From an uncultured archaeon (GTDB lineage: Archaea > Thermoproteota > EX4484-205 > JAAOZP01), in assembly GCA_938045545.1 (NCBI GenBank), contig CALIBN010000010.1, positions 46,240-110,239 on the forward strand: a stretch of DNA of 64,000 nucleotides, written 5' to 3'. The stretch's first letter is position 1. Every line of letters starts with the position of its first letter. Positions 7,775 to 56,226 of the stretch are shown here, piece after piece. The translations under genes were made by a program, and so were the position numbers. The notes beneath the pieces are model-generated. The model did not search any database and was not told the origin of the DNA. It saw only the letters and a list, made by a program, of their open reading frames with translations.

Positions 7775-7780
7775 AGGGGG

Positions 7781-10088: not shown

Positions 10089-10350
10089 ATGGTGAACCTG
10101 GAGCTCAGGAAGCGCTTCGTCGATTCGATAGAGCACATTAGGAAGATGGATTTCTTCAAGGACCACTCTAACTTGTCCTCCGTGAAGATCCTCGAAAAGA
10201 TATTCGGGGGGAAATAGACTACGAGTATTGGTGGAAGGAAAAGAGTCCGCGTAAACGAAGGGAGCCAGATTTCTACAAATCCCTACGAGAAAATGATCTG
10301 TATGGACTCATCTTGAGAAAAAGAGTGTATATTCCGAAAGGGGTCTTTGC
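10089..10350 (+). pseudogene. truncated, frameshifted copy 2 of the repeated immunity-like family
   Basis: MVNLELRKRFVDSIEHIRKMDFFKDHSNLSS..., frameshift in G6 tract 10206-10211, continues EIDYEYWW...; ends at GCACGCGCGC. Confidence 0.85.
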
Positions 10351-11710: not shown

Positions 11711-12563
11711 CATACTCCAAACGAATATACCGAAATACCAAAACAACATTTTGAAAAACCCTTTTTATACGCATATATTTTTTACTAATGGCCTCATATC
11801 ACTACCCTCTACGATCTAATATTGGAATTGGATTTCTCGGTCTTTATAGAATGCATGCTCAAATCGTTAAAAAAAATAATAATCTTCAAAAAGCATTAAA
11901 ATGTTATCGTTCGCGTTTCTCGGCCCTCCAGTATAGGTATGGAATCCCCTTCTCATAGCAGGGCCAATTCTCGTGCCTCAATTCATAACCCAAACTCACT
12001 ACATCCTTAAGACCCAACTTCCTTCTCAGTAACCTTTTCAATAACCTTCTTGAAAATGAGGATCACAAGGCTCTATTCAAGCGGAGGCGAGCCTTAGATA
12101 AATCATGTACGACTCTAGCATCATGTTCGCCACCAGTTCAACAGCCCTCATGGGGCTCGGAATACCTGCGGAGCTTCTCGGAGCTGTTTTAGCGTGCACG
12201 CTATAAAGCCGTTAGACTTAAAAACTTCGGGTTCAGAATAAAAAAAGAGAAGAGTTGGATAAATGTCCCGTTTGCCATGAGAAGGTAGGAGGTTAGGAAC
12301 AGAAGCTCGAGGATCTCTCCATAATGCTCATCGGCCGTAGTCTGCTAGAGCCATGCATTAATGTCTTACTCTCCTCTCCGGTTTTCTCCTCAGCAATATG
12401 TAGATGGTGTCAAGTATTGCTGGGGATATTAGCCTCTCAACGAGTGTTAGAGGCTTCTCGTCCTAGTATAGCTGGAAGAAGGTATAATGGTCTTTGATAA
12501 AAAAAGGTCGAGAAAACCATGAAACGATGGCCAAATGAAAACTCGCGTAGCAACTAAAGGGAT

Positions 12564-39699: not shown

Positions 39700-39790
39700 G
39701 GGCCGATCGTCTAAATGGTTAGGACACCTGCCTGACATGCAAAATGCACAGCAGGCGCAGGAAATTGCGGTTCGAGTCCGCGTCGGCCCA
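39700..39790 (+). tRNA. tRNA-Val(GAC) with 18-nt intron (39738-39755)
   Basis: Acceptor GGGCCGA/TCGGCCC, anticodon stem CCTGC/GCAGG with loop CT-GAC-A, GGTTCGAGTCC. Confidence 0.88.
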
Positions 39791-39924
39791 CTTATCCTCA
39801 TTGCACGCTTTAGTATTAAGAATGGATCTCCATTTCTAAGCACGCGATTTGAAATTGGGGAAACCTTTTTCCAAGGGCGCTTACAGTTATGCTTAAAAAC
39901 TAAATCTCACGACAATATTATGGG

Positions 39925-40663
39925 ATGAACAATCCCGAGCTAGGGAAGCGTTTCATCGATTCAATAGAGTATCTTAGAAGGATGGATTTCTTTAGGGATT
40001 ATTCCAATTTAGCATCAGAGGAGATCCTCGATAAGGATCTTCAACGGCGAGATAACATACGAAGCCCAGTGGTTCGTTGAGAAATGGCCTGGGGGGGAGC
40101 GGAGGAAGGAGAAAGAAAAGGGAGAGACATACGGACAACTTTTGAAGAAGTCATTAGAGGAGCGCGAGGAATACTGGATGAAGGTAAGCGATTCCAGGGT
40201 AGATTTGAGGATGACCCACTTCGACGTCAAGAGAGTTTTTGCTGAGGATGCCGAGACGATTGTGATGGAGGGCATGGGGATAAAGTTAATGGAAAAGCTC
40301 GCCAGGATATCTAGAGGTTTATTTAACCCGATCGACATTAGAGAAAAATGGAGAGAGTGGAAGGGCAGGCTCCCTCCTGAGACCACTCCGCAAGTGAAGG
40401 AATATTTTGATCGCGACCACGGACTTTGGAGCAAGCGCAGCGTATCCTTTAAGTTTAAAAATGAAGAGCATGCCGTGGATTTCTACTGTGAAGGCGATTA
40501 TCTATTGATTGATCTCGCAGTTAAGAAAATAAATGAGCTCATCAAGGATACGGGGTATCAGTATTACTGGCTTCATGACACTGGCTACATCGCCTACATT
40601 GTCCTCTCGGAAGATGAGGCCGAGAAGCTAAGGGAAAGATGTTGGAAGCTCTCCTCGCTTTGA
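39925..40663 (+). pseudogene. copy 3 of the repeated immunity-like family, full length with one frameshift near 40033
   Basis: MNNPELGKRFIDSIEYLRRMDFF... then FDVKRV, LARISRGLFNP, INELIKDTGYQYY, KLRERCWK; aligns end to end with 53830..54510. Confidence 0.85.
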
Positions 40664-42245
40664 GACCTGGGTTTTTCGTACCCGACTATATCCCCTAGAG
40701 TATACTCGATTCCGTTCTCACAACCCGTCTTAATCATCTCATCCATGTCCTTAAGGTATATCGCTATCGGGATTCCGTACTTAGCCTTACTGAAGTCATA
40801 GCCCTTCCATTTGTCCTCCGTGAAGTAACCTCTCAGCTGCCTTGTGCCTTCTTTTATACGCTCATCCGGATAATCATCAGATATCATCGTTGTTTTGGTC
40901 TCGAATATCACCACAACCTCATCCCCGCAATACACAGGGAAATCCGGCCCTATTTTGTGCGGTCCTGAAACCTTAAGCTTATCCTCTGGGATTCCTGTGA
41001 TTTCAGACGCCTCCTTCGTAAGAACCTTTTCCTTTAAATAGGAGTACAACGTATTCCTCACCGATGTCTCCCTCGAGTTTTTAGTTTTATCTTCAAGTCC
41101 TTTGCTGAGAGCATCCTTCAACTTCTCAACTCTCCTCGTTAAAACACGCTTAGGATTCTCCAAGTATATCAGACGATCGGATACTTGCTTGCCTTTCAAG
41201 TATTCCATTCGGATCGTAGCTCATATCCAAAATTTGTCTAAAAGTCTCAATCATTATCTTGGACAAATATCGCCCCTCCCAATTGTAAACTAGTTTGAGC
41301 TCATGCTCCTTTGCCTGCCAGACTTTTATCGTGAAGATTACCGCAGGTCCCTTGTTCCATCTGTCGTAGTGCATATCTTTCTTTAGAGAGATTTCTATCC
41401 TTCCATATTTCACGACAAGCCAGTATTTTCCGTGCGAGAATTCTATGTTGAATGGCATTCTTCCTTCCTTGATCGCCATCCTGATAAACTCGTACGTGGT
41501 GATTCTAGTTATTACTACTTTAGCCACTTCACCATCTTCACAGATATTCCCGGGAAGGTCAGAATCGAACTTCGGTCCATATTCTTTGAAGAACGTTCTC
41601 CCCTTTACCTCAATCTATATCTAGCAGGTTCTTTTCCCAGATACAGTTTAATCTGCTCACTATGTATACGGATCCTTAGATTCTCCTTATGTTTTTTCAA
41701 GATGCATTCCACCCTTAAGCCTTCGAGTTGCTCCTCTCTTTAAATTTCCTCAGCGATTTCTTCACTAACCTCTTCGACTGACTCCTCAGTTCTCTCTTCA
41801 ACTTCCTTCTCAAATAACTCTTCAACCTCCTCAACTACTTCTTCAATCTCCTTCTCAACAAGCCCCTCTTCGACGAGCTCCTCGACTTCTTTAACCTCTT
41901 CTTCCTCCTCAATTTCTTCACCCTCTTCTTTAACTCCTCAACTTCTTCCTACTCTAACGCCCTTTCCTCTTCAACCTCCTCGGTAACCTCTTCATCAACT
42001 TCCTCAACAAACTCTTCCTCTTTTCCCTCAACCTCCTCAACGATTTCCTCAACAGCCTCTCCTTCCTCTAACATCCTTTCCTCCTTAGCTTCCTCAACAA
42101 GTTCTTCAACCTCCTCAACTTTCTCTTCAACCTCTTCGAAGCTCTCAAGGATCTCTTCAAGGGATTCCTCCTCTCCCATTAACTCCTCAAATTTCTCCTC
42201 CAGAATATCGGATTCCTCTATAGGTTCTTCGTATTCCTCGGGCTC
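40594..42245 (-). pseudogene. 3' part of a large protein: Glu-rich linker, middle domain and C-terminal PD-(D/E)XK nuclease-like domain; several stops and frameshifts
   Basis: GPDF...IFETKTT...RQLRGY in 40594..41208; co-oriented contiguous fragments 41150..41527 and 41949..42245. Confidence 0.65.
41745..42240 (-). repeat. Glu/Val-rich low-complexity coding repeat (EEVEE)
   Basis: Repeated TCTTC/CCTCAAC units on the + strand. Confidence 0.85.
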
Positions 42246-42995
42246 TCCTGAAGGCCATTTTCTCCAGCCACTCTGCATGGAGCGCCATCTCCGAAGGGTC
42301 TCCTCCCTTCAGCAACGGTATCGTCGGTATCCCCTCCTCCACATACCTTATCGTCAGGAGTGTGGCCTTGATCAAGTTGGATAGGTTCAAGGCCTTGGGG
42401 TAATCGACGTAAATGGGCATGTCCCACCCGATCACCCCGTCGAAGCCTCCTTTCTTCGCGAAGCCCACAGTGAAGTCGAACGTCTCCTCCGTCAGGAGCT
42501 TATCCGGCATTATGGTTGAAAGCAGAATTTGACCGTCGAATTCGAGGAAACTATGTATGCCTTCCTCCTCAACCTTTTTCACGTTCTCGCTGTCGAGCTT
42601 GGAGATCGACACTATGACCCATCCATCCCTAGGTCCCTCCTCGGCTTCACAGGGTCCTCAAGCGGCATCTCGGGGATTAAACGGGGAAGCGCAATATCAG
42701 GTGGGCTTCGTCTCAAAGACTCCAGCATCAGGCTCAGCTTATAGTATACATCTGCCTCGGGAGGAGTGAACCTGCCGGACTTTACGCAGGCCGGGGCGAG
42801 CGGGCAAGTGCTACATTTAAGAGTTATCCCCATGATCCTCATCTTTCCAGCAATGCATTGGTAGACCAAGCACATTTTCCTCTTGGAAAGATGACACCCG
42901 GCACATAACCCGAGTTTAAGGTAATCGCATTTGCGGCATGACTTTCCACACCTAGGGGGGCCATACGCGATATACATTCTCAGTAAACTCGTCAT
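42246..42995 (-). pseudogene. 5' part (copy B) of the Cys-rich/TGT-like/phosphoesterase fusion gene
   Basis: CGKSCRKC...CAGC...C....C...CSTC....C, probable frameshift near 42640, then LLSTIMPD..GWDMPIYVDYPKALN..GIPTIP..MALHAEWLEKM as in copy A. Confidence 0.7.
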
Positions 42996-43540
42996 CTTTT
43001 CTTTAAAAGTTTTTAAAAAAAGCGCGAGAACGCGCGATTAAAACAATGACCCTTCAGGATAGTTTCTACATTTATTTTCCTTAATATTTTCAGTGCAAAT
43101 TAATGTCTTATTCTTCTCTCCAGTCTTCTCATTAGTATGGAAATTTTGGAAACAAAGGCATCAAGGCCTTTTAATCGCCTTGAGCCTTTTAACGCGCACG
43201 CCACCTATGATGCTTAGCGTAACACGTTACCGTTCCCCCCAGTGCCGGAGGAGGCTTGATGAAAATCCTATGGGTGTCGAACATGCTACTTCTAGGTCCA
43301 CTTTAGAGACGCTGGTCTTCATCCGGTACTCCTTGCGCTGCTAGCGTACGCTAAGAGATATGATTTTGCAGGAGCAGAAGGCGATTCTATGAAAAAACCC
43401 TTTCACCTCCCTTGCCCCTTCCTGTAAGTGCTTGTCAGACTGGTTTACTGCTACAATAATAGGCTTAGAAGGAAAGGAGAACATTGAGCTTAATCTGCCC
43501 AATATTGCTAGCTTTATATAAGATTACTATGGGTGCCATA

Positions 43541-45124
43541 ATGAAAATGGTGATGTGGAGAGAGCCTCCTCTTATGCTTGGGCTGGATCTTGGAACATCC
43601 AGCGTCAAGGCAACGCTGGTCGACAGCAGGGGCTCGGTATTGTTGAGCACGAGCAGACCGTATTCGATTGAGTCGCCTGTTCCAGGATGGTGCGAGCAGG
43701 ATCCTGCTGTATGGTGGAGGAGCGTTAAGGAGGTTGTTCACGAGCTTCTCAGTAAAACCGGGTTCAGCGGGGACTCTGTTTCAAGCTTATGCGTTTCCGG
43801 TCAGATGCATGGAATGATTCTTCTAAACAGTTACGGACAGGTTTTGAGGCCCGCCATAATATGGTCTGACAACAGGAGTAGGAGTCAATGCGTGCAGATT
43901 GAGAATGAGCTTGGAGTAGAAGCGTTGATAGAGATAACTGGGAACAGGGCGGCCACCGGCTTCGCTGCCGTAAGCTTCCTATGGGTCAGGCAGAACGAGC
44001 CGAGGATCGCGGAGGCTGTGAAAACACTGCTTTTCCCAAAGGATTATATTAGGATGATGCTTACGGGTGTTGTCTGCACGGATTTCAGCGACGCTTCAGG
44101 ATCACTGCTTCTCGACATACGTAGAAGACAATGGTCTCAGGAGATCGCGTCCATCTTAGGCATAGGGCTAGACGCTCTCCCCGAGATCAGGTGCTCGCAC
44201 GAGGTTGCTGGAGAACTTACCAGAGGGGCTGCCGAGGCATTGGGCTTAAGACCTGGGACAGTTGTTGCGACAGGCGGCGGTGACTCGATGGTGGGGGCTC
44301 TCGGCTGCGGCGTAACGCGTGAAGGAGTCTGGTCGGTAAACATAGGTACTGGAGGCCAGGTTCTAAGCCCGACGGCTAGGCCAGTGGTGGACATGATGGG
44401 TCGGACGAATACTTTCTGCCACGCTGCTCCAGACATGTGGGTTGTTCAAGGCTCAACGCTTTCAGCAGGCTTATCTCTAAGGTGGTTTAGAGATGCTCTT
44501 GGGGGAGAGGAGAAGCGTCTTTCAGAAGCCTGTGGAATAGATGTTTACGATGTTTTAACCCTGGAGGCCGCTAAGGCACCCCCCTGTTCGAAAGGCCTTG
44601 TCTTCCTACCATACCTGATAGGGGAGAGGACTCCTCACAACGATCCTGCAGCGAGAGGCGTTTTCTTCGGCCTTAGCCTTGCACACGATAAGACGCACAT
44701 GGTTAGGGCTGTCCTGGAAGGCGTGGCTTTCGCACTTAGGGACTGCAAAGAGGTTTTAACAGGGCTCGGGTTGAAACCTGAGAAACTGGTTTTCAGAGGA
44801 GGAGGCTCAGGCAGCAGGCTCTGGAGAGAAATACTGGCTAACATTCTCTCGGAAACCGTTGTGAGCGCTGCACAGCTGAACGATGTTTCCTTCGGCTCCT
44901 GCCTGCTAGCTGGGACTGCCTATGGCTTGTGGAGGGACTTGAACAAGGCATGCGCTGAAACAGTTAAGTATGGCGATTCGTCGAACCCGGATCCCTCGGC
45001 TTCAAAAATCTACGATAAACAGTACCGGCTATACGTTTCCCTATACCATCATCTCAAGCCTCTTTTCCAGCTTCTCGCAGAGCAAGAACAGGCAGCTAAA
45101 GGTCATTCTCCGAGAAGGCTTTAG
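43541..45124 (+). CDS. xylB: xylulokinase (FGGY family)
   Basis: GLDLGTSSVK, SGQMHG, WSDNRS, TDFSDASG, PYLIGERTPH; start codon uncertain. Confidence 0.88.
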   Translation: MKMVMWREPPLMLGLDLGTSSVKATLVDSRGSVLLSTSRPYSIESPVPGWCEQDPAVWWRSVKEVVHELLSKTGFSGDSVSSLCVSGQMHGMILLNSYGQVLRPAIIWSDNRSRSQCVQIENELGVEALIEITGNRAATGFAAVSFLWVRQNEPRIAEAVKTLLFPKDYIRMMLTGVVCTDFSDASGSLLLDIRRRQWSQEIASILGIGLDALPEIRCSHEVAGELTRGAAEALGLRPGTVVATGGGDSMVGALGCGVTREGVWSVNIGTGGQVLSPTARPVVDMMGRTNTFCHAAPDMWVVQGSTLSAGLSLRWFRDALGGEEKRLSEACGIDVYDVLTLEAAKAPPCSKGLVFLPYLIGERTPHNDPAARGVFFGLSLAHDKTHMVRAVLEGVAFALRDCKEVLTGLGLKPEKLVFRGGGSGSRLWREILANILSETVVSAAQLNDVSFGSCLLAGTAYGLWRDLNKACAETVKYGDSSNPDPSASKIYDKQYRLYVSLYHHLKPLFQLLAEQEQAAKGHSPRRL

Positions 45125-46130
45125 TTATGCTATTTTCATACGGCGGCTGTAATATGCCCTTCTCAGTAACTATTCCCGAGATAAGCTCAGGCGGAGTAAT
45201 ATCGAACGCAGGGTTAATAGCCTCAACCCCCTCCACAGTGACAAGCCTGCCAAGAAAACGCGTGACCTCGGAAGGATCTCTCTCCTCAATAGGAATATCC
45301 TGTGGCTTAGTCGCAAGGTCGAAAGTTGACAAGGGTGCTGCAACGTAGAACGGCACGCCGTAGTGCTTCGCCAGAACCGCCAGCGTCAGGGTTCCAATCT
45401 TGTTCGCAACATGCCCGGTTGCAAGAACCCTGTCTGCGCCCACGAGAACCTTGTCAACCATGCTTCTCGACATAACGTATCCAGCCATGGAGTCGCAAAT
45501 CAGCTTAAACGGGACACCGTATTTCCTGAGCTCCCAAGCCGTGAGCCTCGCACCCTGGAGCAACGGCCTAGTTTCAGTGGCCAGCACTGAGATCCTCCTC
45601 CCCTCCTCCCAAGCGAGCCTTATTATCCCGAGAGCAGTACCATACTCCACAGTACCTAGGCCACCCGTGTTGCAATGCGTAAGAATCCTGTCGCCATCCC
45701 TGACCAGTTCCAAACCTTTCCTAGCGATCCTGAGGTTTGTCTCAACATCCTCGTCAGCAATCCTACCGGCCTCCTCGAGAAGCCTCTTCCTTAAATCACT
45801 CACCGTCCTAGCCTTCCCCACCACTCGAAGACACCTGTCTATCGCCCATCCCAAGTTCCTCCCAGTAGGCCTAGCGAGCCTAAGCTCCTCCGCGGCTTTC
45901 AAAATCCTGTTTTTCAACTTCTCGGCATCACTCCCCCTGTACCTTAGAGCCTCAAGAGCAAGGCCGTAGGCTGCGGCAACCCCGATTAACGGAGCCCCTC
46001 TGATCTGCATTTTTCTTATCGCAGAAATCACTTGACGGACACTCGTAAGCCTAAGCCACTTCTCCGAATAGGGAAGCCTGGAGGAATCAAGCGCGTAAAC
46101 CACCCTATTCCTGAAGAATATGCTCCTCAT
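45096..46130 (-). CDS. mtnA: methylthioribose-1-phosphate isomerase
   Basis: IRGAPLIG, RPT..NL, THCNTG, ETRPLLQGARLT, NKIGT, NPAFDITP. Confidence 0.92.
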   Translation of the reverse strand: MRSIFFRNRVVYALDSSRLPYSEKWLRLTSVRQVISAIRKMQIRGAPLIGVAAAYGLALEALRYRGSDAEKLKNRILKAAEELRLARPTGRNLGWAIDRCLRVVGKARTVSDLRKRLLEEAGRIADEDVETNLRIARKGLELVRDGDRILTHCNTGGLGTVEYGTALGIIRLAWEEGRRISVLATETRPLLQGARLTAWELRKYGVPFKLICDSMAGYVMSRSMVDKVLVGADRVLATGHVANKIGTLTLAVLAKHYGVPFYVAAPLSTFDLATKPQDIPIEERDPSEVTRFLGRLVTVEGVEAINPAFDITPPELISGIVTEKGILQPPYENSITKAFSENDL

Positions 46131-46221
46131 TACATCTAAGATAAGCCCAGAGAATTAAAAAAACTTGCGGAAAAACAGTGTCGAAAATCCTTATATCCTC
46201 AAGCTAAAAGAACAACATTAG

Positions 46222-46323
46222 GCGGAGGTCGCCAAAGCCAAGCAGCGGCAAAGCCTGGTCAAAGGCGCGAGGCTTAGGACCTCGTCCCGTAGGGGTTCGT
46301 GGGTTCAAATCCCACCCTCCGCA
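46222..46323 (+). tRNA. tRNA-Leu(TAG) with 17-nt D-loop intron (about 46236-46252)
   Basis: Acceptor GCGGAGG/CCTCCGC, anticodon arm CGAGG-CTTAGGA-CCTCG, long variable arm; removing 17 nt gives the normal GCCAAGCCTGGTCAAAGGC. Confidence 0.9.
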
Positions 46324-46754
46324 CTTCTCAAATAAGCCATACCACGATTTCGTCGTCCCAAAGATCAATATCACCTACCTTTAACTCGTCGACGCTCCTC
46401 CCCAGCTCATAGCCCAAGATGTGTTTGGCCAAACCCTTATCGATCAACTCCTCGCTAAGGTTGTTCAGCAAGTTCATAAGCCTTCGTGAACGAGTACCAC
46501 CATTATTTTGATGGCGCATTCTGACCCTGTTTCGCATATTAAGTCTGTCTGAGGAATGAACGCATATCTAGGCCTACGCCCAACCTTCACCCTGCCTGAA
46601 AGCATGTGAGCGCGCACATTCCACCTCTTAGCCGGAGGTTGCGCACGTATGTTTGAGAGAAAAACCTGGCCGACTATGATCTTGGTTTCAAGCACAATTC
46701 TTTTAGCCAATGAATTAAAAAAACTTTTTAAACGAGGATTAAAACAGAGTATCG

Positions 46755-47699
46755 TTGTCGTCAAGATATGAAGTCAGATTAATACCTGTCGAAGAAAAAG
46801 AAAGATTAATGGATAAATATGGTGAGCGCCTTCTCTACGAGGAGAGAGCAGACATATACGGGTGTTGCGTCAAACTGCTAACCGATGTAAAGTACGTGAA
46901 GGAGCGTTGGGAGGAAAGCTTCTATCCAATGTCGGCACATGTTCGCTCCCATGGAAGATTGATTGTGACAAACGAGACGGATGAGGAGCAAAGCGTGTTC
47001 TATGACCCGCTTTCGAAAACAGCCTTCCTAATCAACGTAGATTATTATGGCTGGGTGAAATCCATTGCCTTGAGTGTTGCAAGCGATATTCTTGAAGATA
47101 GTCATAGAATAAATTCGGTCCACGGCGCGTGCGTGGACGTAGATGGTAAAGGTGCTTGTCTAATCGCTCCCTCTGGAACAGGAAAAACCACTCATACGTA
47201 TGGTCTTCTTAGGCTTAAAGGAATACGTGTCGTATCAGATGACTGGTTTTTCGTCCGCTTAATGGGAGAGCAAGCCATCGCGTTTGCTTCGGAGAAAAAT
47301 TTCTACATACAGGCAGATATCGCAGATAACTGGGGCGAGTATCAAAAACTTGTCGAGAAAGCTGAATTCGATTCGAAAGGCAGAGCCGTAGTAAACGTAA
47401 GATGGGTTGTTGGCAAGGGCAAAATTTTGCAGATGACTACGTTGAAAAAGGCTATACTACTTAAGCGCGATCCGGGGGACAAGACGGTTTTCGACAGGCT
47501 CTCCCCAGAAGAAGCATCCAGCTACATAGAGTCTGTCGACTTCTGTAATCCGCATATGCTTGTAAAGGACGGAAGAAAGATAGATTTAAGAAGGAGATTC
47601 TTTAAAGAATTGTTTAACCACCTAGAGGCCTATATCGTAAATACTGCTGCACCAATTCTCCAAAGCCATAATGCTGTTAAAGAAATTTTAGGGTTATAG
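46755..47699 (+). CDS. HPr kinase/PEP carboxykinase-like P-loop protein
   Basis: VHGAC, APSGTGKTT, VVSDDW. Confidence 0.65.
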   Translation: MSSRYEVRLIPVEEKERLMDKYGERLLYEERADIYGCCVKLLTDVKYVKERWEESFYPMSAHVRSHGRLIVTNETDEEQSVFYDPLSKTAFLINVDYYGWVKSIALSVASDILEDSHRINSVHGACVDVDGKGACLIAPSGTGKTTHTYGLLRLKGIRVVSDDWFFVRLMGEQAIAFASEKNFYIQADIADNWGEYQKLVEKAEFDSKGRAVVNVRWVVGKGKILQMTTLKKAILLKRDPGDKTVFDRLSPEEASSYIESVDFCNPHMLVKDGRKIDLRRRFFKELFNHLEAYIVNTAAPILQSHNAVKEILGL

Positions 47700-47805
47700 G
47701 CTATTCGCGTGCTAACTGATAGTTAATTCAGAGGATGCAGCCGAAAACATTTATATTGCTTAACGGGCTCCTGTAGCGTAAAGGTTGATGGGAAGGAGGG
47801 TCTAA

Positions 47806-49470
47806 TTGGAAGGAGCTTTTAAACAGAAAATTGCTTACTTCTCAATGGAGATTGCATTGTCTAACGATATTCACACTTACAGCGGAGGCCTAGGGGTTCT
47901 CGCGGGCGATGTAGTAAGGTCAAGCGCAGATCTTAACCTTCCCCTGTTAGCGGTCACGCTCGTAAGCAAAAAAGGATACTTTAGGCAAGAACTAACCCGT
48001 GAAGGAAGACAAATAGAGCATACTGATTCTTGGGACCCTTCACAGTTCATGCAACAATTACCTGAAGAAGTTACGGTTAAAATCCAAGGCAGAGATATTT
48101 ACATAAAAGCTTGGCGGTACACGATAAAAAGTGTGTCAGGCTGGGAGGTTCCAGTATATTTTCTGGATACTGATATTGAGGGGAATCTTCCTGAGGATAG
48201 GGAAATAACTTCACTTTTATATGGTGGTGATGAAAGATATCGTATAAAGCAAGAGATTGTTCTAGGAATAGGAGGCGTCAGAATGTTAGAAAAGCTTAAC
48301 GTGCTCGTCCATAAATATCATATGAATGAGGGTCATTCCAGCTTCCTAGCTCTTGAATTGCTGCGTAAATTTGAGATGGATATAAATAAAGTTAGAAACT
48401 TATGCGTGTTCACTACGCACACGCCGGTTGAAGCTGGGCACGATAAATTCTCATACGAGCTTGTTCAAGAAACTTTAGGAGAATTCATTCCGCTAAATAT
48501 CTTAAAAAGCTTAGGTGGACAGGATAGATTGAACATGACGCTTCTTGCACTGAATCTGAGCAACTATGTTAACGGCGTAGCGAAAATGCATGGAATTATT
48601 TCTAGAGAAATGTTCCCAAGCCATAAGATTCACGCGATAACAAATGGTGTCCACTCTTACACTTGGACGTGTGAAAGTTTTAGACGACTATACGATAAGT
48701 ATCTTCCGGGATGGGCGCATGAGCCTGAACTACTTATAAGAATAGATATAGTCCCGAACGATGAAATCTGGCAGGCTCATATGGCAGTGAAGAAAATCCT
48801 AATCGACTATGTCAATACGACGACAAATATTGGCATGGACTATGAAGCTTTAACAATAGGGTTTGCTCGAAGAGCCACAGAATATAAAAGGCATATGCTT
48901 ATATTTTCAGATCCTGAGAGGCTGCGTAGAGTAAACAGCAGAGGAAGAATTCAACTCATCTTTGCTGGAAAAGCCCATCCGAAAGACTATCGGGGGAAGA
49001 TGCAAATCGAAGAACTGTTTAGGTATAAAGAAATGTTTAAGGATGAGATAAAAATAGCCTACTTAGAAAACTATGATATAAACGTTGCGGCCAAACTTGT
49101 TTCAGGGGTTGACGTTTGGCTGAACACGCCTCTCCCTCCGATGGAAGCTTCGGGCACAAGCGGGATGAAGGCCGCTCACAATGGTGTGATAAATTTCAGC
49201 GTCTTAGATGGCTGGTGGGTTGAAGGCTGGATAGAAGGCATTACAGGATGGGCAATAGGTCCCTCTCCAGAAGAAAAAGCATCAATAGAAGAGCGAAAAG
49301 CTAGAGAGCTCAATGATCTCTATGGAAAATTAGAGTATGTAATAATTCCGTCGTATTACAAGCGAAGAGATGAGTGGATACCAATGATGAAAAATTCGAT
49401 AGGAAAAATAGCATCTTATTTCAACAGTCATAGAATGATGCATAGATATGTAACTGAAGCGTATTTATAG
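47806..49470 (+). CDS. glgP: alpha-glucan phosphorylase
   Basis: YFSME, YSGGLGVLAGD, HMNEGH, FARRATEYKR, EASGTSGMKA. Confidence 0.95.
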   Translation: MEGAFKQKIAYFSMEIALSNDIHTYSGGLGVLAGDVVRSSADLNLPLLAVTLVSKKGYFRQELTREGRQIEHTDSWDPSQFMQQLPEEVTVKIQGRDIYIKAWRYTIKSVSGWEVPVYFLDTDIEGNLPEDREITSLLYGGDERYRIKQEIVLGIGGVRMLEKLNVLVHKYHMNEGHSSFLALELLRKFEMDINKVRNLCVFTTHTPVEAGHDKFSYELVQETLGEFIPLNILKSLGGQDRLNMTLLALNLSNYVNGVAKMHGIISREMFPSHKIHAITNGVHSYTWTCESFRRLYDKYLPGWAHEPELLIRIDIVPNDEIWQAHMAVKKILIDYVNTTTNIGMDYEALTIGFARRATEYKRHMLIFSDPERLRRVNSRGRIQLIFAGKAHPKDYRGKMQIEELFRYKEMFKDEIKIAYLENYDINVAAKLVSGVDVWLNTPLPPMEASGTSGMKAAHNGVINFSVLDGWWVEGWIEGITGWAIGPSPEEKASIEERKARELNDLYGKLEYVIIPSYYKRRDEWIPMMKNSIGKIASYFNSHRMMHRYVTEAYL

Positions 49471-49671
49471 AGATTCACATTAGATCATTATTCTCTAAGC
49501 TTAAATATTGCGGGAGGGCCTCAACACGTTGTGTTGTTAATTTTGAAAGTAATCTGATTTATAGTCAAAGCATGGGAATACCAGAATTGCGACCTCTTTG
49601 CACCTTTAATTGGGCAGTGGGTGTAACGCTTTAATAGAAGTGACATATGTGCGTACTTCGTTGAGCCTCAG

Positions 49672-50793
49672 CTAAGGTTGTATCAGGCTTTTAAGAATAT
49701 AATAGTATGCCGGCTTAGGATTATAGGACTCGTCGAAGATCAGGGCTGAACCGTATCCGTTGAAAAACTCTGGAATCCAAGAATAGCGATCTGTGAAACC
49801 CCACATTACGAATGCGGTGCATTTTTCTGAAGAAAGACAAACCATAAGCATGTCACGGTATATTTCTGCTTGTCTGATTAAGTCTACAGATTTAGCGGGC
49901 AGCTTTAACCGAACATCCATTTCTGTAATATGAATCTCTAGGCCCAGATCACTGAGTCGTTTAATGTTGGCTGAAACTTCTTGCGGTGTTGGATAATACT
50001 CTGTGCTAACGTGCATCTGCAGGCCGACTCCGTGTATCGGCACACCTTTTTCCAAGAGACTTTTAACTAAGTTGTAAACAGCATCCGACTTCACGCCCAA
50101 GCCTTCGGCACCATAATCATTGTAAAAGAGAAGCGCCTGAGGATCCGCTTCATGCGCCCACCGGAATACCATCTCAATGTACTCTGGTCCTATGTTTCTC
50201 AGCCAAATAGTTTTCCTCAAAGATCCGTCGTCGTCAACTGCCTCGTTAACCACGTCCCACGCATAAAACCTTCCCTTATAATGGCCAACCACCATGTTAA
50301 TATGATCGTGGAGAATGCTCATCCATTCCTCGCGGCTATAGTTTCCATGCGTAATCCATTCAGGCAGCTGATAATGCCAGACAAGTGTGTGTCCGCGCAC
50401 CTTCATCCCGTTGGCCTCTGCAAAACTGACGATCGCATCAGCCTCGGCGAAGGAATAGACGTAGCGCTCAGGGTGGACTCTTTCAAATTTTAAGGCGTTT
50501 TCAGTTGTCAAAATGTTGAATTCCCTGCTAAGCGTCTCCGTGTATTCCTTTATTCTAAGCTGGTCAGCGCCCACTGCAGCACCAATATAGATACCTCGTT
50601 TCTCAGTTAGCACTTTCAAAGGCGGAACCGCCTGCCGCAACTGCTCTATTTGAGCACTAAGCCTTGAAACCCGCTGCCGCAACTCCTCTACTTCTCTTTG
50701 CTTCATTACGATTCCCAACGCATATCCAACTATGATTCCAGCCAGTAAACCGGCTATTAGGCATTCTTTCGAAAAAGCCAGGCCGCTTCTCAT
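49672..50793 (-). CDS. membrane-anchored GH10 endo-1,4-beta-xylanase
   Basis: N-terminal TM and coiled coil; ENALK, RGHTLVWH, WDVVNE, GLQMH, ITEMD, WGFTDRYSW. Confidence 0.92.
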   Translation of the reverse strand: MRSGLAFSKECLIAGLLAGIIVGYALGIVMKQREVEELRQRVSRLSAQIEQLRQAVPPLKVLTEKRGIYIGAAVGADQLRIKEYTETLSREFNILTTENALKFERVHPERYVYSFAEADAIVSFAEANGMKVRGHTLVWHYQLPEWITHGNYSREEWMSILHDHINMVVGHYKGRFYAWDVVNEAVDDDGSLRKTIWLRNIGPEYIEMVFRWAHEADPQALLFYNDYGAEGLGVKSDAVYNLVKSLLEKGVPIHGVGLQMHVSTEYYPTPQEVSANIKRLSDLGLEIHITEMDVRLKLPAKSVDLIRQAEIYRDMLMVCLSSEKCTAFVMWGFTDRYSWIPEFFNGYGSALIFDESYNPKPAYYYILKSLIQP

Positions 50794-50882
50794 GTTTAAA
50801 CAAATTTATCCAAGGTTAATAAAAATTCTTGTAAGCCATTTTTCGTATTAAGCTTATTAACCGTTGAACCGCTTAATAACCG

Positions 50883-51377
50883 GTGAACAAGATGGTTTTG
50901 AAAGAAGGCGATAGTGCTCCGGATTTCACTCTTCAATCTGACGAAGGTAAAAAGATATCTCTAAAGGATTACAGGGGGAGAAAAGTGGCGCTATATTTTT
51001 ATCCGAGGGACGGTACTCCAGGATGCACTCAGGAAGCGAGGAGATTCAGGGATTTGGCTGAAGAGTTCAGCAGGGAGAACGTTGCAATCATCGGAGTTAG
51101 CATGGATAGTGTCGAATCACATAAGAGGTTTAAAAAGGATAATGATTTGCCTTTCACACTCTTAAGCGATCCGGAAGCCAATGTCATTAAGAAATATGGG
51201 GCATGGGGGAAGAAGAATCTTTACGGCAGGCTTGTTACGGGTGTAGAGAGAACAACGTTCCTTATCGACGAAGAAGGGAAAATAAGGAGGATCTATAGGA
51301 ACATTAAGCCTGAGGAGCATGCTGAAAAATGCCTGCTGGATTTAAAAAGCCTGGGTTCAAACAGGCAGGCATTGTGA
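50883..51377 (+). CDS. bcp: peroxiredoxin Bcp
   Basis: YFYPRDGTPGCTQEA, LLSD, RTTFLID. Confidence 0.93.
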   Translation: MNKMVLKEGDSAPDFTLQSDEGKKISLKDYRGRKVALYFYPRDGTPGCTQEARRFRDLAEEFSRENVAIIGVSMDSVESHKRFKKDNDLPFTLLSDPEANVIKKYGAWGKKNLYGRLVTGVERTTFLIDEEGKIRRIYRNIKPEEHAEKCLLDLKSLGSNRQAL

Positions 51378-51433
51378 AAACAGCCTACGGTGGTTAGACA
51401 GAGTAAGCTCAACAGTCCTCCTACAGAGGGGGA

Positions 51434-52567
51434 ATGGGTTTAATGAAGCCAGTGTCCGAAAAACAGGTGTCTTCGCGGAGGGTCATTCTGCTAGTCGACC
51501 TAGACTATTTCTTCGCGCAGTGCGAGGAAACAAGGAACCCGTCTTTAAGAAACAAGCCTCTGGTTGTATGCGTCTACTCCGGGCGGAGCGGGGAAAGCGG
51601 TGTTGTAAGCACTGCAAACTATGAGGCGAGGAAGCACGGGGTTAAATCAGGCATCCCCATCTCGCTTGCTAAAAAGAGGCTGATGAACGTTGACGCAGTA
51701 TTCCTCCCGGTCGACCACGAGTATTATAACAGGGTTTCAGACAAAGTGATGAGCATCCTTAAGAAGCATGCGGACTTCTTCGAGCAGGCTGGGGTGGACG
51801 AGGCCTATCTTGATGTGAGCGAGAGGGTTGAGGGTGATTTCGACAGGGCTGTAGAGTTGGCCAGGAGGATGAAGGAGGAGGTTAAGAGGAGCATGGGGTT
51901 AACCTGCTCCATTGGCATCGGTCCGAATAAGCTTGTCGCCAAGATTGCCGCTGACTTTCAAAAGCCGGACGGCTTAACAGCTGTTAAACCAGAGGAGGTT
52001 CAAGATTTCCTTTCACCGTTACCGGTCAACCGGCTGATCGGAGTCGGAGTTAAGACTCAGAGCCTGATGGAAAGCCTTGGCATTAAAACAATAGGCGACC
52101 TGGCGAGCTACGATGTTAGGAAGCTAATTGTGCTTTTCGGAGAGAAGCTGGGTGTTTACTTCCATAATGCTTCCCGGGGAATAGACAACCAGCCTGTTAA
52201 GGAGAGGGGTGAGGCTTCATCCATAAGTAGAATAACAACGTTGAAGGAGGATACGCGGAACCTTGAGGCTGTTCTTAAGAAGACGAGTGGGCTTTGCGAC
52301 GAGATTCATGCTGAGCTCTCCCGGCGGAGGCTGAGGGCTAAACAAGTTGGAATAATAGTGATTACGAAAGATATGGCTGTTCATAGTAGGTCGAAAACCT
52401 TGGAACAGCCTACAAGCGACCTGGAAGCTATTAAAAAGAATGTTAGGGATTTGTTTGAAAAGTTTCTGAGGGAGTCGGGGCTTGAAGCCAGAAGAGTAGG
52501 CGTTAGGGTCTCAGGTTTCGTTAAAGAAGAAAGGCAGAAACAGTTAAGGGCCTTCATACCAAGCTGA
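51434..52567 (+). CDS. dinB: Y-family DNA polymerase IV (Dpo4/DinB)
   Basis: VDLDYFFAQCE, TANYEARK.GV, DEAYLD, KPDG. Confidence 0.95.
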   Translation: MGLMKPVSEKQVSSRRVILLVDLDYFFAQCEETRNPSLRNKPLVVCVYSGRSGESGVVSTANYEARKHGVKSGIPISLAKKRLMNVDAVFLPVDHEYYNRVSDKVMSILKKHADFFEQAGVDEAYLDVSERVEGDFDRAVELARRMKEEVKRSMGLTCSIGIGPNKLVAKIAADFQKPDGLTAVKPEEVQDFLSPLPVNRLIGVGVKTQSLMESLGIKTIGDLASYDVRKLIVLFGEKLGVYFHNASRGIDNQPVKERGEASSISRITTLKEDTRNLEAVLKKTSGLCDEIHAELSRRRLRAKQVGIIVITKDMAVHSRSKTLEQPTSDLEAIKKNVRDLFEKFLRESGLEARRVGVRVSGFVKEERQKQLRAFIPS

Positions 52568-52859
52568 GCCTTGTTCATATAACTTGGTTAAATGGCTTGT
52601 CGCGTGCTATCCTATTTTTCTCTCAAACGAGTCTTCGAAGAGGATTCTTCGACCTCGAATAACTATTTGAAACAAGCCGTAAACCAGCATTGGGTTTGCC
52701 ACAGCCCTCTATAGGACCCTTATAAATAACTCCTCTTTCAAAACCTTTTTAACCAATACTCCAATACTTATTGAAGCGCACGCTTAGTTTATTCCTTCCC
52801 CACGCTGGAAACTTGGCCTTAAACGCTTAAATCTCTCATAACTGCTTTAAACAAACGGG

Positions 52860-53213
52860 TTGGGCCATTCCTGGGTTGAGGTTGAGCTGTCTAATATGGA
52901 AAGAACCAGGTCGAAGAAGGTTAAGGCTCTAGTGGATACCGGGGCTAGCCTATCAGTTCTGCCTAAGAGTCTGGCCGACGAGCTTGGAATAGAGGCGGTT
53001 AGCGAAGACAGGGTGATGACGGGGGCTGGAGAAATAAGGATAAGAAGAGGCAGAGCCTGGATAAGGCTGGAGGATAAGGAAAGCCCTTTCGACATATGGA
53101 TCTCCGACATTATAGACAGGGTTCTGATAGGCGTTGTGGTCCTGGAAACCTTCGGGTTTGAAGTCGACCCTACAACGGGAACAATAAGAGAAAAGCCTCT
53201 GCTTCTCTACTAA
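52860..53213 (+). CDS. clan AA (retropepsin-like) aspartyl protease
   Basis: ALVDTGA, LIG..VLE..G..VDP. Confidence 0.85.
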   Translation: MGHSWVEVELSNMERTRSKKVKALVDTGASLSVLPKSLADELGIEAVSEDRVMTGAGEIRIRRGRAWIRLEDKESPFDIWISDIIDRVLIGVVVLETFGFEVDPTTGTIREKPLLLY

Positions 53214-53499
53214 TCTTTGCAGACTGATCATGTGCATGCGCACCACAACCTGATATCTGGGAAAAGGTGCAGGACGATAGAAGAAAAATCAAAAATTGTT
53301 GAATTTGAAAAGGGCTTCTAAATTTAAATCCACCCCGTCTTTTTTCTGGATTTGAGAAAAATGCTGGTCGCCCGTTAGGCATCCAAGTTTAAGTTTTTGC
53401 GCCGCCGCTATAATGCTGTCGGCCATCGGTATTCTATACTTAGCGCGCGTCACTATATATTATTTTATTAGTAAAGCCTTAAATCCTTAAGAAGATTTG

Positions 53500-53605
53500 T
53501 GGGCCCGGAGGGATTTGAACCCCCAACCTACGGGTTATGAGCCCGCCGCTCTAACCTGGCTGCTCCGAGACATGTTTAAATTTTTCTCGTTTAAGCTACG
53601 GGCCC
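53500..53605 (-). tRNA. tRNA with CAT anticodon, likely Ile2, with 31-nt D-loop intron (53560-53590)
   Basis: Acceptor GGGCCCG/CGGGCCC typical of archaeal tRNA-Ile, arm GCGGG-CTCATAA-CCCGT; intron with GCTT/GAGC helix, two 3-nt bulges and CGAGA/TCTCG stem. Confidence 0.88.
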
Positions 53606-53829
53606 TCAAGTTTATTTGACACACTAGGGTAAATAAAAACTTTTCCCTCGTTGTATTTAAGTGCTGAATAACGTGTTTTCCAGTTGCCTCGTCTATTTCA
53701 ACCGATACGCTTTAGGATTCGCAGGCGATGGCCTAAGCGTGCACCGAATTATGAAAAGGGAATCGATTCTTTAAGGTATTAAAGGAGCTACACTTAAAAG
53801 CCTGACTATATAATTATTATCTCAACGGA

Positions 53830-54510
53830 ATGGTTGACTCCAAGCTCAGGAAGCGATTCGTGGATTCCATAGATTACCTCCGCAAGATGGATTTCTTCAA
53901 AGACTATTCTGATTTGTCTTCAGAAGAGATCTTAGAAAGGATCTTCAGTGGAGAAATTAATTATCCGCATAGTTGGTGGTACGAAGAGCCTAGAGTCTTT
54001 TCCGAAAAGCCAGAACCCATACTGCACGGGCCCTCTCTGCTGATAAGCATAAAAGATCATCAGAAATACTGGATGAAGGCAAGCGATTTTGAAATAGATC
54101 GTTTATTGATTCCTTTCGATACTAAAAGGGTTATGAAGGAAAATGCCGAGACTAGCATTGATGATAACATTGGCACGGCCCTCCTTAAGAGGCTCGCAAG
54201 GATATCGAGGGGCGTTTTTCAGCCAACTAATATAAGCTCGATGTGGCTAACGCCCAAAAGATCTAAGTGGCTAGTACAAGAGGTCAGCTTCGATTTTAAG
54301 GGCAAGAGGCATAGCATCGAGATCGTCCTTCAATACGATTACATCGAGGACATGGGCCTCAGGGAGTTGAACGAGCTCATAGAAAAAACTGGATATAAGT
54401 ACTATCAGGTAGAGCAAGACTATATAATCGTGGTCGTGCTGACGAAGGAGGCTGAGAAGTTGGAGAAGGAGAGGGGCTGGAAGTTCGAGTATATTTTCTT
54501 AACCCTCTGA
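53830..54510 (+). CDS. copy 4 (intact) of the repeated immunity-like family
   Basis: 226 aa open ORF homologous to the copies at 8963, 10089 and 39925. Confidence 0.85.
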   Translation: MVDSKLRKRFVDSIDYLRKMDFFKDYSDLSSEEILERIFSGEINYPHSWWYEEPRVFSEKPEPILHGPSLLISIKDHQKYWMKASDFEIDRLLIPFDTKRVMKENAETSIDDNIGTALLKRLARISRGVFQPTNISSMWLTPKRSKWLVQEVSFDFKGKRHSIEIVLQYDYIEDMGLRELNELIEKTGYKYYQVEQDYIIVVVLTKEAEKLEKERGWKFEYIFLTL

Positions 54511-56226
54511 TAGGAGCTCGCACCCCACTTCCACTTTCCTATTCACCAAGTTGAAGTAAACATAGGCTACTATGTAAGCCTTTATATTCTCTCCCTTCTC
54601 AACACCATAGCCCTCTTTACTCAAGTCAAGGCCATGCTCTTCGATATGCTCTTTGTATTCTTTTAATTGCTTCAAACCCTCCCTAATATCATCACCTATA
54701 TTTTCATAAACTCTAGTTGACTTAACCTCTATGACTATGAGGCGACCGTCCTTCGTCTTAAAGACTAAGCCCACCCTCTCATCTGTAACTTTTATGTGGA
54801 CTTCTTTTGCTACAAATTCTGCTCCCTCTAACTCAGAAAGTTTACCGGCATTTACAGCATTTCTAACCAAATCTCTTCCATACTCCCCTAGCTTTGTGCT
54901 AGAAGCTTTCTTTATGCTTTCGATCTGCTCGTCGCTCAGCACTTCCGAGTATAGAAATCTAGGACGAGGTTGAATTACAACGTATCTCAACCATTCAGCT
55001 TTCTTCGGCTCGGTCTCCTCCGGCACGTTGATCTCAAGCGTTTCAGCGCCGCAGAAGGCGTGTCTCCCATTGTCGAAGTATGCAACCAGCTCAAGCTCCC
55101 CTTCCTCAATCTTCTTCCTCAATACCTCAACGTTGTAATATCCGAACATCCTCCTCAGCTCCTCGACCAGTCCAATCCTTCCCCTCTCTCCCACTGGGAT
55201 GTTAAGGTAATACTTCTCCTCCATCTTCCATTCTTGGACTGAAATCGGAATGGTTGACTCATAGTCACCATACTTTATTATCAGCAGGTTTCCTTCGACG
55301 CTTAACGCGGCTTTGTATCCCCCTTTCTCATGTGGGGCTTCTTCGTTGAAAGCGATGCTGAAGTCTCCGTCTTCGTAGAAAGCGAAGTATATCTCAGCCC
55401 CCTCCCTTATGCTTCTCTGCTTGAGCTTCGCTATCATAGATGCTCCATGTCTCTCGCTCCAGCTTTGCGATTTAACACTCTCCAACTCTACCTCCTTCCC
55501 CTCTACGATTAACCCATCCTTCGGGCTGAAGTAGAAGCTCGAATCCTTACACTTAAAGTGCATGGAGTAGTCGTATCTAATGATGCTGATTTTCACTTCC
55601 CTCCCGGCAAGCTCCTTCAAAAACTTCTCCGGAACATTAATATTGAGGATTTCGCTTGCTTCATCCCTCCTACTCGACCATTCGAAAACTTCTCCGTCAT
55701 CTTCTCTTAACACCCTGATCAAGTACAGGCCCTTTTCAAACTTCCCCCTGCACTTTATACGGCCGGACTCAGGTATGGTTTTCTCGAACTCGCCGACGAC
55801 TATCTCCCCGCCCCCTGAGCCGAGAGCTTCCTCCAGCGTCTTCCTCAGTATATTTTCCTCGAGCCCCATCAATTGTGACGTTACCGTCGTTGCGATCATG
55901 CAGTTCCTCAGCCTGCTGTCGGGGTAGTCGAATACCTTCTCAACAACGTTTCTAAGCTTGCTGTTCGCTACCTCCCTATTTCCGCCCGGCCCTCTCAGTG
56001 CCCCATAGTAAAAGTTCCTAAGGACGTTCAGGAGCCATCTCGCAGCGTCGGGCGCGAGCGTGTTAAGGATGTGTTTGAGGAGGTCTTCAACCTCGTTTGC
56101 GAGCTGCATGTCGGGGATGGATTGGCAGAACCCCATTATCTCGAGCTTGAGGGAGAGAGTTGGGTGAAAGTGGTTAGGCCAAGTCCTCCGAGTTGAAAGG
56201 GAAGGGCTATTCTCAAGGCGACGCAA
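54499..56226 (-). CDS. large protein (probably 5'-truncated) ending in a PD-(D/E)XK nuclease-like domain
   Basis: 575 aa open frame; C-terminal KLGEYG...VGLVF...IVIEVKST...KQLKEY; converges on 53830..54510. Confidence 0.65.
   Translation of the reverse strand: MRRLENSPSLSTRRTWPNHFHPTLSLKLEIMGFCQSIPDMQLANEVEDLLKHILNTLAPDAARWLLNVLRNFYYGALRGPGGNREVANSKLRNVVEKVFDYPDSRLRNCMIATTVTSQLMGLEENILRKTLEEALGSGGGEIVVGEFEKTIPESGRIKCRGKFEKGLYLIRVLREDDGEVFEWSSRRDEASEILNINVPEKFLKELAGREVKISIIRYDYSMHFKCKDSSFYFSPKDGLIVEGKEVELESVKSQSWSERHGASMIAKLKQRSIREGAEIYFAFYEDGDFSIAFNEEAPHEKGGYKAALSVEGNLLIIKYGDYESTIPISVQEWKMEEKYYLNIPVGERGRIGLVEELRRMFGYYNVEVLRKKIEEGELELVAYFDNGRHAFCGAETLEINVPEETEPKKAEWLRYVVIQPRPRFLYSEVLSDEQIESIKKASSTKLGEYGRDLVRNAVNAGKLSELEGAEFVAKEVHIKVTDERVGLVFKTKDGRLIVIEVKSTRVYENIGDDIREGLKQLKEYKEHIEEHGLDLSKEGYGVEKGENIKAYIVAYVYFNLVNRKVEVGCELLSEG

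Follow-up and report, generated by a model that had tools for sequence, protein, structure and literature searches.

Decayed copies of a candidate polymorphic nuclease and partner gene pair in the genome of an uncultured archaeon

The DNA analysed here, termed the window, is 64,000 nucleotides (nt) long and comes from an uncultured archaeon (GTDB lineage Archaea; Thermoproteota; EX4484-205; JAAOZP01). It corresponds to positions 46,240–110,239 of contig CALIBN010000010.1 in assembly GCA_938045545.1. At two places in the window a small gene of a family termed c2 lies tail to tail with a large opposite-strand gene whose product ends in a predicted PD-(D/E)XK nuclease domain. Two convergent modules were described in an initial annotation of this DNA; both are real, with gene overlaps of 70 and 12 nt, but both are decayed. 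Comparison with related genomes suggests a nuclease effector matched to a small protein that may act as its specific brake.

Two decayed gene pairs in the window

The features of the two pairs, in window coordinates, are:

53830–54510, plus strand: small gene copy 2, c2 subfamily A, intact, 226 amino acids (aa); predicted cytosolic partner/inhibitor of the nuclease
54499–56109, minus strand: large gene 2, a 536-aa orphan C-terminal fragment of the giant family (the open frame, 575 aa, reaches 56226)
54502–54912, minus strand: predicted PD-(D/E)XK nuclease domain of large gene 2 (residues ~400–536)
54940–55800, minus strand: beta-rich middle domains of large gene 2 (residues ~104–390), from an AlphaFold2 model
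55819–56109, minus strand: helical bundle of large gene 2 (residues 1–97), common to all giant-family members
39925–40663, plus strand: small gene copy 1, c2 subfamily B, a pseudogene (frames 39904–40080 and 40013–40663)
40594–41220, minus strand: large gene 1 fragment, a type-B PD-(D/E)XK domain (GPDF...FETK...QLRGY) with a run-on tail; 47% identity to residues 2198–2372 of the giant protein L024
41150–41739, minus strand: beta-domain fragments of large gene 1 in two other frames; 60% identity to giant residues 2051–2198 and 43% to 2022–2063
41740–42308, minus strand: Glu-rich remnants in two frames, corresponding to the acidic ~400 aa at the N-terminus of the type II large protein
42187–43037, minus strand: remnant in two frames of a gene with a Cys-rich, a tRNA-guanine transglycosylase (TGT)-like and a metallophosphatase part, N-terminal 280 residues only; 72% and 63% identity to residues 14–281 of L018:8422-10386

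In copy 2 the small gene overlaps the stop end of large gene 2 by 12 nt. Large gene 2 had been annotated as a large gene. It is 5′-truncated: homology begins at residue ~1908 of a 2379-aa relative, and no trace of the upstream parts of the giant is present further upstream in the window. The codon at positions 54769–54771 encodes Gly where the catalytic Asp is expected; this residue is Asp in 16/16 of the other type-A alignment rows that have a residue there. The E and K of the D...(D/E)-x-K triad are kept, and the full triad is absent. Because homology starts at ~1908 and the catalytic Asp is Gly, large gene 2 is probably both truncated and catalytically dead. The change was checked against contigs from two public DNA runs of one study (one run may be the source of the window DNA); no variant is found at codon 54769–54771 in these contigs.

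In copy 1, which had been taken as two genes, neither gene is intact. The small-gene region is 739 nt long, which is not divisible by 3, and a frame change is needed at ~40035–40036, where one base is extra relative to intact homologues; the tblastn match splits at 40035/40037. The contigs of the two DNA runs show no indel at the frameshift position. The segment read as large gene 1 consists of at least five separate frames (40594–43037, minus strand) and is not one gene. Its nuclease fragment keeps the catalytic triad and has an HSDR_N match (E 0.0049) that is under the Pfam curated cut-off. The 70-nt overlap of the copy 1 genes is a C-terminal run-on beyond ~40684, where homology to intact relatives stops. 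Copy 1 as a whole is the wreck of a type II layout (described below), in which a TGT-like remnant, Glu-rich pieces and, spread over three frames, a type-B cassette are left. Locus L017 in a second species occupies the same site as copy 1, after the L1-L10-L12 ribosomal protein genes; it has an intact small gene and, once more, a large gene in fragments. The shared site suggests vertical inheritance.

Other parts of the initial annotation agree with the comparison. The small proteins of the two copies are homologues (38% identical over 209 aa, E 3e-39), and a 43-sequence alignment of the family displays the conserved blocks and a segment of variable length after the residues GEI. The two large C-termini have in common only the nuclease motif region (28% identity over 79 aa, E 1e-6), and the Glu-rich stretch that had been noticed is placed at 41740–42308. 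Judged from their sequences, both pairs are decayed relics and not working modules.

The nuclease-tipped proteins and their two partner families

The structure of the 536-aa large gene 2 protein was modelled with AlphaFold2 from a 24-row alignment (predicted local distance difference test score, pLDDT, 89.3). The model has a helical bundle at residues 1–97, beta domains at 104–390 and an alpha/beta domain at 400–536. The alpha/beta domain of the model has a PD-(D/E)XK fold. With VIA-align 2 the best row for this domain is NucS (2vld; Z 7.8, root mean square deviation (rmsd) 2.4, 90 residues aligned), and the other rows over residues ~384–536 (Z 5.6–7.4) are mostly PD-(D/E)XK or endonuclease-like enzymes, including AF1548, Hjc and Exo5. 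The rows also include nuclease toxins controlled by antidotes, i.e. CdiA-CT (4g6u, Z 6.2) and CinB/CidB (Z 6.0–6.2), and the defence nucleases Card1, Can2, Hachiman HamA, McrC and SduA (Z 5.6–6.2). Foldseek gives SfsA (prob 0.98) and EndoMS (prob 0.95), and the family profile matches the restriction endonuclease (REase) domain of Card1 among solved structures (E 7.9e-4). Pfam matches to SfsA RE, PDDEXK_9 and HSDR_N are all under curated cut-offs. The closest structural matches, NucS/EndoMS, SfsA, Hjc and AF1548 (Z 7.2–7.8; Foldseek prob 0.95–0.98), share the D...E-x-K core, but they are stand-alone repair or resolution enzymes that lack giant scaffolds, partner genes and hypervariability. In the beta-rich part, residues 102–182 resemble PHS018 (2glw; Z 7.6, rmsd 3.5, 77 aligned).

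The motif reads D...E-x-K followed by Q-L-x-x-Y, the latter being typical of RecB/Cas4-type members. The triad is complete in six type-B rows, and the D...(D/E)xK motif is kept in all eight further large C-termini of the family that were inspected.

The nuclease is found on three kinds of protein. Full-length giants are membrane proteins of ~2,100–2,380 aa (L023 and L024 have 2339 and 2379 aa). Their layout consists of ~7 N-terminal membrane helices, which on inspection of the sequences obey the positive-inside rule, a middle region of ~1,000 aa, a second hydrophobic cluster and a C-terminal region of ~1,000 aa that ends in the nuclease. The type II large protein is ~720–850 aa long and displays no membrane segment; an extremely Glu-rich stretch makes up its first ~400 residues, and the same cassette of beta domains and nuclease comes after it. 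The third form is a stand-alone C-terminal fragment of 556–599 aa. The giants share their body, and their C-terminal ~170–440 aa are split into deep classes, which recur on the other scaffolds, so that the same classes are found on giant, acidic and orphan forms. Several C-termini combine segments of more than one class. One orphan fragment of the genome to which the window belongs (the own genome), C9:2371-3114 (L033), has GPDF...VELK followed by VD...VEVK, two successive nuclease motif sets, and appears to be a chimera in which parts of class B and class A are joined.

Two incomplete giants of the own genome, C51:1-4947 (L035) and C22:2-4288 (L032), lie at contig edges, with the 3′ end missing in one and the 5′ end in the other. 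They were considered as halves of one split giant, and this was rejected: their overlap of ~690 aa is only 78% identical. As different partial genes, they indicate a minimum of two paralogues, or strain variants, of the giant in the own genome. The ~7-helix N-terminal domain of the giants has no detected family; a PrsW-like identity was considered for it, with no Pfam match and no obvious motif by eye.

Four giants (L023, L024, L038 and L047) were examined for N-x-S/T sequons. The middle ~1,000 aa contain 7–8 sequons against 5.0–5.8 expected, and the C-terminal ~1,000 aa contain none against 2.8–3.4 expected each, or ~12 in total. Three stand-alone C-terminal fragments likewise have none. Genome-wide the ratio of observed to expected sequons is 1.0, and 3/139 proteins with at least 2.5 expected have zero. 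Since the giant sequences are related, the pattern is a hint and not a test; it would fit a glycosylated arm outside the cell. It is possible that the C-terminal half meets the glycosylation machinery and avoids sequons, as an exported effector might. Hydropathy after the middle region indicates three helices in L024, a hairpin of ~45 aa in L023 and L047, and a single stretch of ~31 aa in L038.

The gene before the type II large gene encodes ~620–650 aa, with a Cys-rich N-terminus, a TGT-like barrel (CxCxxC) and a calcineurin-like phosphoesterase. A representative, L018:8422-10386, matches the PADLOC TGT model (E 1.1e-8) and Metallophos_2 (E 1.3e-5), and has no match among solved TGT sequences. 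The barrel and its CxCxxC zinc motif are reminiscent of DpdA-type DNA modification, but unlike DpdA the barrel is fused to the Cys-rich and phosphoesterase parts. No other Dpd gene turned up nearby, though no search was aimed at other dpd families.

The small c2 protein displays, on inspection of the alignment, no signal or membrane segment. Its AlphaFold2 model (pLDDT 92.7) is helical in its N-terminal part and ends in a helix-on-sheet domain, and is poorly predicted only in the variable insert after GEI and in the last four residues. The protein matches no Pfam, NCBIfam or PADLOC family, Pfam finds nothing for its relatives either, a sequence search of solved structures gave no match, and an atlas search gave only unnamed clusters. 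Fold searches with the model were too weak to place it: the best Foldseek E-value is 4.9e-3 with a template modelling (TM) score of 0.14, methyltransferase rows in Foldseek have a TM of only 0.13–0.17, and the best VIA-align 2 rows are NTF2/cystatin-like rolls at Z 2.7. A profile search yields 547 cluster representatives at E ≤1e-3. Many are bacterial proteins of ~195–200 aa that align over their full length, and the records looked up are all hypothetical except one "HEAT repeat domain-containing protein". When 33 relatives, chosen mostly for greater length, were scanned, 11 showed a distant bacterial c2 domain fused to leucine-rich repeats (LRR) with Cu_amine_oxidN1, or to WD40, HEAT, TPR or Kelch repeats. 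LRR repeats are among the immunity families listed by Zhang et al. (2012; PMC3482391).

A total of 28 small-gene loci were examined, seven from the own genome and 21 from relatives. A convergent gene of the large family lies directly behind the small gene in 25/28; those without it are L016, a locus on C17 of the own genome, and C16:10488 of the own genome, where only relics are present. The C-terminus is readable in 21 pairs; nine of these overlap, and the extremes of spacing are an overlap of 70 nt and a gap of 60 nt. Otherwise the pairs are flanked by housekeeping genes with no relation to them (SufBD/SufC, exosome, RNA polymerase subunits, Trm56, eRF1), so the unit is the gene pair and not a larger island. 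Other genomes of the genus carry c2 in 13/16 cases. The own genome has 16 c2 matches, of which only three are intact (window copy 2, C16:36666 and C16:10488), and every c2-paired nuclease in it is truncated, broken or mutated. An intact small gene beside a decayed or absent large gene, i.e. the pattern of an orphan antidote, is present at L016, L017, L022, L029, L027:5898 and C16:10488.

A second partner family, termed D (168–238 aa), was found in the own genome, where nuclease-tipped genes that lack a c2 neighbour are followed by a co-directional D gene. The D-paired genes are on C22 (the 1428-aa partial giant), C9 and C1 (type II), and keep their catalytic motif; C9 carries a tandem array of large C-terminus, D, large C-terminus, D. 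The family is present in 16/17 genomes of the genus. Fourteen of the 26 D open reading frames directly follow a nuclease-tipped gene, and 6/15 scored pairs display a 4-nt overlap. D has no Pfam match and shows no detectable relation to c2; the possibility that the two are distant homologues was rejected (hhalign probability 0.15%). D proteins also occur as tandem-duplicated fusions of ~400–510 aa (L038, L039, L043, and search rows of 405–516 aa), and D genes as adjacent pairs (L049, L052), arrangements that are reminiscent of poly-immunity.

Partner and nuclease types are matched. Subfamily A of c2 is found with nuclease class A in 11/11 loci and subfamily B with class B in 10/10 (21/21 together). 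The c2 and nuclease distances give a Mantel r of 0.68, with 0/5000 permutations as high. This covariation is as would be expected for cognate binding, but also for simple co-inheritance; the switch of partner family is more telling. In a 35-row nuclease tree both deep halves hold c2-paired and D-paired clades; the partner family requires three changes on this tree against 11.2 when shuffled (0/500 shuffles as low).

Genomic setting of the window

The window is a segment of archaeal chromosome, with genes for ribosomal proteins, SecY, signal recognition particle and tRNA synthetases. The closest proteins in public records are named Candidatus Brockarchaeota or Thermoproteota. Further features of the window are:

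39700–39791, plus strand: tRNA-Val (ARAGORN), 134 nt upstream of small gene copy 1
53499–53572, minus strand: tRNA-Met (ARAGORN), 258 nt upstream of small gene copy 2
6698–11774: a third, fully decayed module region (G+C content (GC) 0.40–0.42)
6698–6895, minus strand: D-family relic within the third region
8793–8960, minus strand, and 10089–10229, plus strand: c2 N-terminal relics of the third region, on opposite strands
10356–11708, minus strand: TGT-like/metallophosphatase pseudogene, whose translation is interrupted by an in-frame stop and is scrambled over one stretch

A tRNA gene is present within 600 nt upstream of the small gene in 5/28 loci (4/7 in the own genome, 1/21 in relatives), including both window copies, against a background of ~1 tRNA per 26 kb in the loci examined. 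With only these five loci near a tRNA, tRNA-targeted integration is unsupported as a general rule.

Between tRNA-Leu and tRNA-Met is a segment of 7.2 kb (46242–53572) with lower GC. It carries HPr-kinase-like, phosphorylase-like, GH10, peroxiredoxin, DinB-type polymerase and aspartyl-protease genes, and there are depth spikes at both bounding tRNAs. In one public contig 46339 is joined to 53501, although one side of the joint is only 22 nt long; this was taken as a tRNA-related assembly effect and not as an excisable element. At another place, the gene for ribosomal protein S11 (4798–5193) is on the plus strand, and the genes on either side of it, those for S13/S4 and for RNA polymerase subunit D, are all on the minus strand. 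The arrangement has the appearance of a local inversion in a cluster whose genes normally share one direction.

Possible roles of the system

The reading favoured here, which is tentative and given not quite an even chance, is that of a polymorphic nuclease system with cognate small inhibitors, specific to one lineage (a genus of Brockarchaeota type), in which the giant form delivers between cells and the window holds two decayed orphan copies. The C-terminal cassette, made up of small beta domains and a PD-(D/E)XK nuclease, occurs in three contexts, giant, acidic and stand-alone. Each nuclease variant is encoded tightly against one small, apparently cytosolic protein, either c2 (convergent) or D (co-directional). 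The small protein would bind and block its cognate nuclease, as an immunity protein or antidote does, and so neutralise its toxicity; where related archaea are in conflict, the giant form may present or deliver its nuclease at the surface of the cell. The architecture, nuclease fold, gene linkage, covariation and decay of the window copies are observed; binding, toxicity, neutralisation and export are inferred. The core of this proposal, a nuclease effector with a specific protein brake, is common to the first two of the alternatives below and is the most likely conclusion overall.

The comparison with bacterial polymorphic toxins (CdiA-CT/CdiI, Rhs; PMC3482391) covers several properties. A huge conserved body with a variable C-terminal REase-fold nuclease is found in both. 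In both the small partner gene is pressed to the toxin end, with D co-directional and often overlapping by 4 nt, and truncated orphan C-terminus/partner cassettes occur, also in tandem (window copy 2, the 556–599-aa forms, the C9 array). Partner types track toxin types, and CdiA-CT is a structural neighbour (4g6u, Z 6.2). REase-fold toxins, orphan cassettes and immunity proteins of repeat or NTF2 type are established in the bacterial systems (PMC3482391). The system found here differs in its scaffold, a polytopic membrane protein or an acidic soluble one, in having no Pfam model for either partner family, and in being confined to one archaeal genus among the genomes searched. The idea of a polymorphic architecture with orphan cassettes, put forward in the initial annotation, thus gains from the variable C-termini on conserved scaffolds, the linked partners, their covariation and the canonical position of D, and the predicted nuclease fold bears out that part of it as well.

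Several observations weigh against the favoured reading. Linked genes co-diverge by shared descent alone, and the covariation of c2 with the nuclease is therefore no proof of contact. The association of the small gene with a nuclease-tipped gene, proposed initially, is upheld within the genus in the 25/28 loci, but the sole bacterial c2 homologue whose context could be read lies among GNAT, DUF2442 and redox genes, with no nuclease next to it. The secretion or delivery domain that might have been expected in the full-length large genes was not detected: Pfam on 14 large proteins finds no known secretion, trafficking, processing or releasing-peptidase domain, with no family at all in the four longest, and among the features of bacterial systems no T5SS, T6SS or T7SS (type V, VI or VII secretion system), PrsW, RHS, other trafficking or repeat domain is detected. 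The c2 partner is convergent, a layout recognised as atypical from the outset; immunity genes usually lie downstream and co-directional (Zhang et al. 2012; PMC3482391), an arrangement displayed only by D. All C-termini found have one fold, unlike classical systems, which mix unrelated toxin folds. Orphans in the own genome have 36–47% protein identity to the resident giants over the shared region, which is too low for recent cassette exchange. Four of 17 type-A rows have lost a catalytic residue (D to G in the window; K to E in P0084, P0085 and P0089), and P0089 is an apparently full-length protein. Simple hydropathy is compatible with a C-terminal ~1,000 aa inside the cell (L024) or outside it (L023, L047). 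The soluble type II form, next to cytoplasmic-type enzymes, argues for an intracellular role for at least some copies.

A stronger version of the favoured reading is contact-dependent nuclease delivery in archaea. The giant would show a glycosylated arm of ~1,000 aa and export its sequon-free, nuclease-tipped C-terminal ~1,000 aa into neighbouring cells, as a one-membrane analogue of CdiA, and would be served by two unrelated new immunity families, one of them convergent so that the transcripts collide. In this full form the proposal is speculative and on balance unlikely.

The chief alternative, somewhat unlikely though to be taken seriously, is an intracellular defence or toxin-antitoxin-like system. 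The nuclease would act in its own cell, on invading DNA or in abortive infection, with the small protein as a brake and the N-terminal parts as sensors or regulators: a membrane sensor in the giant, or the acidic protein with a TGT-like, DNA-modifying partner. The solubility of the type II form and its position after a gene with a DpdA-type TGT match and a metallophosphatase domain agree with this, as do a C-terminal region that may be cytoplasmic in L024 (three predicted helices after the outside region) and the defence nucleases among the structural neighbours (Card1, Can2, Hachiman HamA, McrC and SduA, as above). The system also has the high copy number per genome, fast decay, single-genus distribution and low-GC islands that are typical of defence genes. 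However, no PADLOC model matches the nuclease, small or giant proteins, and tandem arrays of orphan C-termini with partners typify polymorphic toxins rather than any known type of defence. A sequon-rich outside domain of ~1,000 aa with a sequon-free C-terminus has no obvious role in a cytoplasmic nuclease switch. No methyltransferase gene adjoins the modules, as a restriction-modification system would have, and the giant-type loci contain no other self-marking gene. The c2 pairs also depart from the type II toxin-antitoxin operon in being convergent, with an effector that is the tip of a protein of 536–2379 aa; the D pairs are operon-like, yet the toxin part is still giant.

In a further alternative the nuclease has a housekeeping function at the surface or as a secreted enzyme (scavenging of extracellular DNA, uptake, biofilm remodelling), and the small protein is a barstar-like safety inhibitor or an export chaperone. 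The large outside domain and polytopic anchor of the giants, the predicted nuclease fold and a partner lacking a signal or membrane segment would all suit such an enzyme. Two deep classes with matched partners, alternative unrelated partners and orphan arrays are unexpected for it, as are frequent pseudogenisation and absence from all 24 genomes of other genera that were searched for c2 (0/24), and this explanation is considered improbable. More improbable still is a selfish mobile cassette, in which the nuclease and small gene would spread at gene ends or tRNAs by a homing- or addiction-like process with no benefit to the host. Copies do lie at many chromosomal places between housekeeping genes, relics are many, the modules are low in GC, and five loci, both window copies among them, have an upstream tRNA against the background of ~1 tRNA per 26 kb. 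Against this stand the 23/28 loci with no nearby tRNA, the lack of integrase, transposase or terminal repeats in the module flanks examined, the lack of any c2 match in phage or plasmid collections, and the site that copy 1 shares with L017 of a second species.

Nuclease toxins with dedicated protein antidotes, such as barnase-barstar and colicin E/Im, are well known; in these a binding protein, tightly co-inherited with the nuclease, protects the producer. Those of Wolbachia, CinA/CinB and CidA/CidB (7esz, 7esy), resemble the proposed pair in that the nuclease-like domains of CinB and CidB are PD-(D/E)XK (Z 6.0–6.2). The partners in barnase-barstar, colicin and Cin/Cid pairs are unrelated in sequence to those found here and differ in gene order and biology, and the likeness to them would be a functional one.

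Among archaea, polymorphic toxin systems were predicted by Makarova et al. 2019 (mBio), as cited in PMC8416519; Makarova et al. 2021 (PMC8416519) state that none had been characterised by then. VARTIG, a module of Thermococcales described in the latter paper, also has a long first protein with a hypervariable C-terminal part and matched variable neighbours, and is read there as a conflict or self-nonself system. VARTIG differs in its immunoglobulin domains, its membrane-protein partners and the absence of a nuclease (PMC8416519). In a word search of the Brockarchaeota description (PMC8065059) the words toxin, immunity and nuclease do not occur. The scaffold and partner families, the convergent partner gene and the repertoire of effectors with a single fold appear to be new, although supplementary tables of the cited surveys might list these families.

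Polymorphic toxin systems are central to kin competition in bacteria. The lineage described here offers a compact and testable case, in which a single nuclease fold comes in many variants, two partner families are new and have confident models, and a giant scaffold has no known secretion domain; for one of the partner families, c2, bacteria hold hundreds of relatives that lack annotation. Should the system be intracellular, it would represent a type of defence that current catalogues (PADLOC, Pfam) do not detect. If the partners are specific inhibitors of the nuclease, they would provide new immunity folds and a route to the study of cell-cell conflict in uncultured hot-spring archaea.

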